Sequence record: NC_018835.1
Strand: one strand, 5' to 3'
From: Escherichia phage NJ01
Length of the DNA stretch: 64,000 nucleotides
The notes beneath the pieces are model-generated. The model saw only the letters and a program-made list of their open reading frames with translations. It did no database searches and was not told the origin of the DNA. Below, piece by piece: positions 63,030-63,368 of this stretch. Position numbers and translations under genes: made by a program. Position 1 is the first letter of the stretch. Every line of letters begins with the position of its first letter.

Positions 63030-63368
63030 GGTTCCATTATGAACCAGAGTGATGTTACCATGTTGGAAAGGATGGGCGTTCTTGGCGTTAACTGCACCTT
63101 TCGTTGCATGACGGCTGTGACCAACAATCCATGAAGGCGCTACAGTGTAAGCTGTTTCACCAGTGGTGTGTTTCTTGTACTCATCTTGAAGGATGAATGC
63201 GAAAGAAGGAAGTGCCTCTTTATAAGTGAAGACTTCCTTAGTGCTCTTACGCTGACCAAAGATACCAGAGGAATGTTGCCCTCGGAATACCCCAGCATAA
63301 AAGAGTTGGTTAAATACGTCTAAATCAGTGCTTGACAGATTACCGCCAGCTAATACGATGCCACAAAT
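63030..63368 (-). other. in-frame upstream N-terminal region of GATase-II domain, interrupted by two TAA codons
   Basis: Same frame reads (ATT)CGIVLAGG...FRGQHSSGIFGQRKST-TAA-GSLHL-TAA-RGTS...IVGHSRHATKGAVNAKNAHPFQHGNITLVHNGTL; GGTGGA SD 7 nt before ATT; TAA at 63237-63239 and 63219-63221. Confidence 0.5.

Follow-up and report, generated by a model that had tools for sequence, protein, structure and literature searches.

Translation initiation at AUU is already known from the genes infC and pcnB, which carry this codon at the start and conserve it among orthologues (PMC3592434, PMC5499595). In infC, AUU/AUC is the target of autoregulation by initiation factor 3 (IF3) (PMC5499595); the infC site reads UAA-GGU-AUU, yields four-fold less than its AUG version, and owes about half of its initiation to reinitiation (PMC3592434). 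In reporter constructs, AUU (and UUG) gave six- to eight-fold lower expression than AUG or GUG, weak hairpins flanking the initiation region stimulated expression about two-fold, and a hairpin placed before the Shine-Dalgarno (SD) sequence did not block reinitiation (PMC3592434); in another system, AUU/AUC reached 5% (PMC5499595). Here we describe a putative AUU start in a phage enzyme gene, the homologue of phi32_83 of phage phiEco32, which lies on the minus strand of a 64,000-nucleotide (nt) stretch of Escherichia phage NJ01 (NC_018835.1; the whole stretch is referred to below as the window). It is an intact early gene and is predicted to encode a protein with a class II, or N-terminal-nucleophile (Ntn), glutamine amidotransferase domain.

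Enzymes of the Ntn type require a cysteine as residue 1. In GlmS, PurF, and AsnB, this nucleophile comes right after the initiator codon, and the phage protein shares both this arrangement and the catalytic motifs; however, it has no recognisable synthase or acceptor domain and is encoded within a phage amidoligase/ATP-grasp cassette. As in infC and pcnB, the AUU of the phage gene is conserved among orthologues and stands without a canonical alternative in frame, and as in infC a stop codon lies 3 nt upstream of it (UAG-AAA-AUU). In contrast to infC, the phage gene encodes an enzyme rather than a translation factor and has no autoregulatory logic, and in contrast to both genes its family uses AUU/AUC in about 22% of cases, has switched repeatedly to and from AUG, and associates these codons with a hairpin. 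We know of no such recurrent switching or hairpin association for infC or pcnB. AUU/AUC starts are visible in this family since only one position next to the catalytic Cys can hold the start codon, and the family thereby offers a natural census of start-codon choice.

Results

The gene is read in one continuous frame. Translation of the minus strand from 63377 to 61338 gave 676 sense codons from the ATT and a sole terminal stop, TAA 61340-61338; read from 63401, the strand gives MKGFTLQVD*KICGIVLAGGNLSS...LVHNGTLMDQ... and then stays open to that stop (asterisks mark stop codons). The lister of open reading frames (ORFs) begins the ORF 61338..63029 at TTG 63029 because no ATG, GTG, or TTG occurs in frame earlier. 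As an initial reading of the letters alone (the sequence-only reading) had noticed, the frame nevertheless runs on upstream without interruption, through CGIVLAGG...FRGQHSSGIFG...IVGHSRHATKG...NAHPF...LVHNGTL. An in-frame TAG (63374-63372), itself preceded in frame by GAT (63377-63375), marks its upstream limit, and between this TAG and the TGT of the catalytic Cys there are only AAA (63371-63369) and ATT, with a GGTGGA SD element 7 nt 5' of the latter. That reading was thus right that ATT, not ATG, precedes the Cys; AUU is the sole candidate start in frame.

The same reading had placed two in-frame TAA codons, 15 nt apart, inside the conserved domain. These TAA strings (63240-63238 and 63222-63220) are shifted by one base from the frame, with 18 nt between them; the in-frame codons at the coordinates given in that reading are AAG (63239-63237) and AAA (63221-63219), and the peptide KEVFTYKEALPSFAFILQD, which had been ascribed to the +1 frame, belongs to the gene's own frame. 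The compensating +1/-1 frameshift pair that had been invoked is needless, as there is nothing to compensate. Of the proposed AUU initiation with recoding, the first half stands and the second falls with the continuity of the frame. Likewise, the alignment of orthologues that had been suggested as a check shows the ATT to be conserved, while the internal stops that it was to follow are out of frame. Programmed recoding (readthrough, a reassigned stop, or frameshifts) was rejected: translation of the whole gene revealed no frame change or in-frame stop within the coding region, the 64-kb window contains no transfer RNA (tRNA) gene of any kind that could supply a suppressor, and an Rfam scan of 63200-63600 (E<=10) returned noise only (astro_FSE at 16 bits against a cut-off of 70).

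The N-terminal part of this frame bears the marks of a translated sequence. Over the 112 codons from the Cys to the first canonical start, the gene shares 78-80% amino-acid identity with its counterparts in phages KBNP1711 and SU7 and has no stops, whereas synonymous sites are saturated (proportion of synonymous differences, pS, 0.68-0.76) and the ratio of nonsynonymous to synonymous substitution rates (dN/dS) is 0.083 against KBNP1711. Purifying selection, saturated synonymous sites, and the lack of stops together indicate that these 112 codons, all upstream of the first canonical start, are translated. With the frame unbroken, they also exclude the split product that the sequence-only reading had listed among its explanations.

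By its sequence, the window is assigned to a phiEco32-like podophage (Kuravirus, Gordonclarkvirinae); it is matched by 97 phage records, the best of them at 99.9% identity. The ATT is conserved in these 97 records and in Aeromonas phage BUCT695, with leader identity of 100% over 81 nt in the best 40 of the 97 records and of at least 99% in 66 of the 97. Counting KBNP1711, SU7, and BUCT695, the codon is shared across four genera and two families. At exactly the same position, ATG is found in Vibrio phage SJSY21 and in a 71%-identical metagenomic relative, and cultured phages (Proteus, Cronobacter, Aeromonas, Pseudoalteromonas, Pseudomonas, and others) have seven ATG, two TTG, and one GTG. The ATT before the Cys is real and conserved, and its function as a start is almost certain. 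Methionine aminopeptidase tolerates Cys as the second residue, so AUU decoded as formylmethionine (fMet) would yield the same mature protein as AUG. A scan of the whole window for other SD-preceded ATT/ATC starts ahead of the first canonical codon returned one candidate, at 32348 (+), which is no more than control codons yield and has a canonical start eight codons downstream.

The identity of the domain rests on Pfam and profile matches. GATase_6 (55.1 bits, cut-off 27) and GATase_7 (27.4 bits, cut-off 25) both scored above their cut-offs, and GATase_4 (21.2 bits) fell under its cut-off of 23. A single-sequence search of the PDB gave no match, and a profile search was required to reach GlmS (E 3e-17) and PurF (7e-16), matches to the two spanning E values from 3e-17 to 2e-14. 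The mature GlmS chain 1xff begins CGIVGA, and the family profile aligns MCGIVG to its Cys1. The Cys-1 column is invariant in both family alignments (A2 and A3), and the Cys codon directly follows the initiation position, as demanded of a class II amidotransferase. The motifs RG-x-[HD]S-x-G, HxRxATxG, NAHP, HNG, and DSE are all present and align to GlmS; the invariant columns are C1, G2, R28, G29, G34, H83, R85, A87, T88, G90, H98, P99, F100, H109, N110, G111, D128, and S129. In residues 230-676, Pfam recognised no synthase domain.

Table 1. Positions in the window of the gene, its initiation region, and other features.
Feature	Position	Strand	Basis or comment
Entire phi32_83 homologue, 676 codons from ATT	61338..63368	-	single open frame; same 2031-nt extent as in phiEco32 (NC_010324) and SU10 (KM044272)
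ATT (AUU), putative initiation codon before the catalytic Cys	63366..63368	-	only AAA and ATT between TAG and Cys; ATG there in orthologues
TGT, Cys-1, predicted N-terminal nucleophile of the Ntn domain	63363..63365	-	profile aligns MCGIVG with E. coli GlmS
Class II (Ntn) glutamine amidotransferase domain, about residues 1-230 of the protein without its Met	62676..63365	-	Pfam and profile matches
Internal TTG-ATG (Leu-Met), first canonical start in frame	63024..63029	-	start used by ORF finders and many GenBank records
TAA strings taken for in-frame stops	63220..63240	-	out of frame; in-frame codons ACU AAG GAA and UAU AAA GAG
Ultra-conserved leader block TTTAAAGGTTAATTAGATGAAAGGGTTTACCCTTCAGGTGGATTAGAAAATTTGTGGCATCGT	63351..63409	-	58/60 against KBNP1711 and SU7; 54/60 against BUCT695
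Leader hairpin AAGGG (63397-63393)-TTTA-CCCTT (63388-63384)	63382..63400	-	minimum free energy (MFE) structure of the segment upstream of the SD
SD-like GGTGGA, AGGUG core from 63382, 7 nt before ATT	63376..63381	-	sequence; GGCGGA in BUCT695
A-rich 7-nt spacer TTAGAAA with in-frame TAG; stop / 3 nt / AUU layout	63369..63375	-	sequence
In-frame mini-ORF ATG...TAG (MKGFTLQVD*), ending 3 nt before ATT	63372..63401	-	MKGLTLQAD* in BUCT695
Terminator-like hairpin, then AAUUU; the amidoligase gene before it stops at TAA 63450-63448	63420..63440	-	fold and covariation
Exact phi32_gp36 promoter copies	15495, 27098, 32326, 41867 (+); 41795, 48566 (-)		motif scan

The start has been annotated unevenly. 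The same gene, at 97% nucleotide identity, is given as a 2031-nt coding sequence (CDS) from this ATT in phiEco32 (phi32_83, NC_010324) and SU10 (SU10_085, KM044272); the AUU start has stood in the phiEco32 record since deposition, and neither record states a rationale for it. Phage LAMP and the BASEL 'Bas' phages also annotate across the start, as do phiEco32 and SU10, these two being confirmed from the ATT. The CDSs of Paul and SDYTW1 begin at the equivalent of the internal ATG 63026, so that half of the domain, the catalytic one, is missing, those of SU7 and KBNP1711 begin at other internal ATGs, and most of the other listed records have no CDS overlapping the start. The four truncated records thus hold a protein without the catalytic Cys and up to 113 residues short. 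Gene finders limited to ATG, GTG, and TTG drop the first 113 codons of the gene, the catalytic Cys included.

The leader that contains the start is, over 60 nt, the best-conserved stretch of the locus, tighter than the windows encoding the catalytic motifs. Its flanks match at 15-26 of 30 positions in KBNP1711 (Nieuwekanaalvirus) and SU7 (Suseptimavirus), and the adjoining windows at 11-14 of 30 in BUCT695 (Grimontviridae); the leader is under strong selection at the nucleotide level. Within the block, the order is hairpin, SD, spacer containing the TAG, and AUU-UGU. The hairpin can be extended to 7 bp with one bulge, and it is kept by both changes seen in the BUCT695 leader, UUUA to UUAA in the loop and GGUGGA to GGCGGA in the SD. 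The in-frame mini-ORF that ends in the TAG is probably incidental, because the AAAGG in front of it is lost in BUCT695, its AUG lies half within the hairpin stem, and in Cronobacter phage A24 the same string, TAGATGAAAGG, is out of frame and provides the SD region for a normal start at ATG.

Several homologous database proteins lack the N-terminus, a gap explained by their contigs, in each of which an ATT adjoins the Cys codon and is preceded at 7 nt by GGAGGA. IMG/VR was scanned twice with N-terminal-domain alignments, which gave 160 loci with 145 distinct leaders, in which the codon before the Cys was ATG in 104, ATT in 24, ATC in 8, TTG in 8, and GTG in one; AUU/AUC thus account for 32 of the 145 (22%). 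At 27 of these 32 loci, no in-frame canonical start follows the preceding stop. Members with ATT or ATC are scattered over the neighbour-joining tree, with at least 11 state changes by parsimony in the first sample, and two pairs of loci that are about 95% identical in their CDSs differ in start type. One is L098 (ATT) and L099 (ATG). The other, L136 and L137 (IMG/VR 3300045988 contigs, about 380-400 per locus), is near-isogenic, with identical upstream sequence (CTTTAGAAAATAAATAAG): L136 has AGAGG, a weak SD, with TTG, and L137 has a 19-nt insertion that gives the hairpin AAAGCC-ACA-GGCUUU and GGAGGA, with ATT. This pair is a natural swap of initiation regions.

Three features travel with AUU/AUC. 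The first is a hairpin of at least 5 bp with a loop of 3-8 nt and its 3' end at -26 to -12, which is found in 23 of 32 ATT/ATC leaders as against 20 of 104 ATG and 4 of 9 TTG/GTG leaders (24/113 for all others combined; Fisher p 2e-7; shuffles give 25%). In 23 phylogenetic pairs, the hairpin was present in the ATT/ATC member only in 14 and in the partner only in two (sign test p 0.002). Under a strict criterion, with the 3' end at -20 to -12, the counts were 11/14 against 7/55 in the first sample (Fisher p 4e-6) and 6/18 against 5/59 in the second sample alone (Fisher p 0.016). The hairpins of ATT/ATC leaders are unrelated in sequence (GAUACC-ACU-GGUAUC, CCGUA-UUUA-UACGG, GUAGCC-GUU-GGCUAC, UCAAGCU-GUA-AGCUUGA), so it is structure and position that are kept, not sequence. 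The second feature is the SD itself, which lies 7-8 nt from the start in 25/32 ATT/ATC leaders against 25/93 others (Fisher p 4e-7; 15/18 against 13/59 in the second sample alone, Fisher p 4e-6) and forms a stronger duplex on average (-8.2 against -6.65 kcal/mol; paired difference -1.47, p 0.0017). The third is distance from the upstream gene: whereas ATG starts mostly abut or overlap its stop, ATT/ATC starts do not, the median gap between the end of the upstream ORF and the start being 26 nt as against 2 nt, and the ORF end falling within -15 to +12 in 4/27 as against 68/98 leaders. As a separate observation, one subclade of ATT/ATC members (L098, L106, L107, L109, L114, L122, and L127) has its hairpin 8-10 nt further from the SD, and a second SD-like element, TAGGAA or ACGGAT, lies between the hairpin and the GGAGAUUUUAUU-AUU site.

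Discussion

We consider it highly probable that the gene is genuinely initiated at AUU from a dedicated initiation region. AUU 63368-63366 would be read by the initiator tRNA as fMet, and deformylase and methionine aminopeptidase would then expose Cys-1 as the free N-terminal nucleophile, the expected mature N-terminal peptide after Met removal being CGIVLAGGNLSSTDLDVFNQLFYAGVFR, with Cys first. The weak codon would be made usable by an A/U-rich spacer and by a strong SD whose spacing is fixed, while the loss of overlap with the upstream gene would leave output dependent on de novo initiation, uncoupled from upstream translation. Such a design would set a low output, a fraction of the AUG yield, that is probably IF3-sensitive as in E. 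coli infC and pcnB. The least certain step is the role of the hairpin, which might act on the 30S subunit, by stimulating or positioning it, or lend stability to the 5' end of the messenger RNA. Either of these is more likely than insulation against reinitiating ribosomes, a role that is doubtful in view of the reporter hairpin before the SD that did not block reinitiation.

Several observations weigh against this reading or against parts of it. The IF3 sensitivity is extrapolated from other genes, and the SD/anti-SD duplex of the window is just moderate, at -5.9 kcal/mol. When the SD is included in the folded segment, an alternative fold pairs GGUUUACC with GGUGGAUU (63382-63404, minus strand) and hides the SD; this fold has four G-U pairs and is incompatible with the conserved hairpin. 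It is probably not the selected structure, because both BUCT695 substitutions break it, although in the E. coli phages it may serve as a switch. Folded as a single sequence, the leader did no better than shuffles (z -0.3 to -0.6), and the support for the leader hairpin is comparative throughout. In the census, the hairpin is absent from 9/32 ATT/ATC leaders, its positional window was widened after the second sample had been seen, and a generic comparison of local MFE in the phylogenetic pairs was just marginal (p 0.043). The last result is explained by the unrelated hairpins and terminators that ATG leaders often carry further upstream, and the position-specific test is the informative one. 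Finally, the SU10 proteome detected the protein with nine peptides but listed a mass of 63.8 kDa, which would fit a truncated model of about 562 residues and not one of 676. The N-terminus was probably outside the search database, and the proteome is silent on it because the search was probably made against the truncated model.

Among the other explanations, the one that survives best is a refinement compatible with AUU initiation, in which the AUU is reached mainly by termination at the TAG of the mini-ORF and reinitiation 3 nt further on, as in thrS-infC. The UAG-AAA-AUU of the phage gene shares the stop / 3 nt / AUU geometry of infC (PMC3592434), and the family member L086 likewise has TAG-AAA-ATT. 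However, the ATT/ATC class as a whole lies further from the end of the upstream ORF than the ATG class, as described above, and the SD of the mini-ORF is not kept in BUCT695. On balance, reinitiation as the main route is unlikely, although it may make some contribution.

A less likely explanation is a start at the mini-ORF ATG 63401 followed by readthrough of the TAG, which would give a 12-residue propeptide, MKGFTLQVDxKI, to be removed down to the bare Cys. Propeptides are known in Ntn enzymes, and Bacillus subtilis PurF is made with a removable N-terminal extension; the ATG and the TAG are in frame, both are kept in BUCT695 (MKGLTLQAD*), and AAAGG stands 8 nt before the ATG. The likeness to B. 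subtilis PurF would exist only if the mini-ORF and TAG readthrough gave this leader, whereas the model needs readthrough in a window without tRNA genes, the AAAGG is lost in BUCT695, the mini-ORF AUG is half buried in the hairpin stem, and the string of phage A24 is out of frame. Moreover, most ATT/ATC relatives have no upstream in-frame start or ORF of this kind, and yet all have ATT or ATC exactly at -1. We regard such a propeptide as very improbable.

Slightly less probable still is a product that starts at TTG 63029 or ATG 63026, with the amidotransferase-like stretch upstream left untranslated. This start is the default of the ORF finder and the annotation of Paul and SDYTW1, and the mass listed in the SU10 proteome would fit the shorter model. 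It would, however, split the Ntn domain after HNGT, with loss of Cys1, the Arg, and HxRxATxG; the stretch upstream of TTG 63029 shows strong purifying selection with saturated synonymous sites; and orthologues begin at Met-Cys. An additional internal product may nevertheless be made besides that of AUU. Lastly, there is next to no chance that sequencing or assembly errors, or recent decay to a pseudogene, hide an ATG-started, uninterrupted gene or mark a degrading copy, as the sequence-only reading had allowed on the strength of the supposed TAA codons and the missing ATG, and as the shorter protein annotated in many GenBank records might suggest: leader, ATT, and TAG are identical in all aligned Kuravirus records, the ATT is shared by four genera of two families, the frame is unbroken with its TAAs out of register, all catalytic motifs are intact, and the dN/dS value over the disputed 112 codons is that of a gene under selection.

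In the library that was searched, we found no paper on frequent and recurrent AUU/AUC use across a phage enzyme family, none on rapid AUU/AUC switching between close relatives, and none that links AUU/AUC to a hairpin, to an SD of greater strength and tight spacing, and to initiation uncoupled from the gene upstream. As a tentative proposal, the hairpin, the strong SD, the 7-8 nt spacer, and AUU/AUC may form an exchangeable module that replaces AUG or UUG sites, as in L136/L137, and places the enzyme under control by IF3 or the growth state of the host; in a wider sense, AUU/AUC starts might be far commoner in phages than annotated. The family supplies a comparative data set and natural variants for asking what makes a near-cognate start usable in bacteria. 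While the locus itself is of moderate interest, the family-wide pattern merits experiment.

Neighbouring genes and other features of the region

The gene lies downstream of an Amidoligase_2 gene, and an ATP-grasp gene follows two small ORFs further on; in relatives, COOH-NH2 ligase and GGACT genes join the same cassette. The acceptor partner of the amidotransferase could be one of the neighbouring amidoligase or ATP-grasp proteins. Iyer et al. 2009 (as cited in PMC10580990) suggested that the cassette might modify the cell wall and act in superinfection exclusion. No Pfam family matched the C-terminal 440 residues of the protein (61338-62675, minus strand), in which a low-complexity Ser/Asn/Tyr stretch is accompanied by several CxxC pairs. 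The latter form at least three CxxC...CxxC clusters, e.g., HGDCGGCDKH...CYWHPEC, CEICGEV...CKVCA, and CSECFKQ...CNSPKC, which suggest zinc ribbons.

Two canonical start codons in other frames of the minus strand overlap the AUU, namely UUG 63366-63364 (short ORF MWHRISWR*) and GUG 63364-63362 (MASY*), and could compete with it for initiating ribosomes. The ATC-type relatives do not have the overlapping UUG.

Upstream of the leader, the terminator-like hairpin shows a compensatory change in SU7, from GUGC/GCAC to GCGC/GCGC, and is followed by a weak U tract. A simple terminator scan made no call there, the T run being too weak, and a simple scan for sigma-70 promoters and terminators found nothing relevant on the strand of the gene; the WFI101126 record has a 'terminator' feature somewhere within the 2163-nt query match. 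The promoter motif of the phage sigma factor phi32_gp36 is tAATGTAtA (PMC8948821). Its element TAATGTATA has six exact copies in the window against 0.7 expected, the same number as that of the experimentally known middle/late promoters of phiEco32. No exact copy lies near the amidotransferase gene, where the TTTAAAGGTTAA of the leader merely resembles the motif. In ATG-type relatives (L020-L026, L175, L176, and L177), TTTAAATGTAA or AATGTAAAT, which are similar to the gp36 element, stand 15-25 nt before the start.

As for the origin of the leader, recent horizontal transfer as its sole cause, an idea raised by traces of a homing endonuclease in BUCT695, is unlikely, the identity stopping sharply 15 nt into the CDS. 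These traces (L008, 2804-3000) lie in a 280-nt gap directly 5' of the leader and consist of a degenerate remnant, MDKVLKKITHQGDCWLWTGCINSDGYPKE*, and then a helix-turn-helix-like ...LSQSKVAKLVGCSQTHVSKLE. In phage UFV-P2, this place between the amidoligase and amidotransferase genes is occupied by an intact HNH gene; homing could help to spread the leader. In A24 (L176, about 115-150), the SD region is TAGATGAAAGGA. Compared with it, the leader of the window looks like an older site of the A24 type into which about 24 nt (TTTACCCTTCAGGTGGATTAGAAA) have been inserted, the inserted stretch apparently bringing the new SD and the ATT and building the hairpin by pairing with the old SD.

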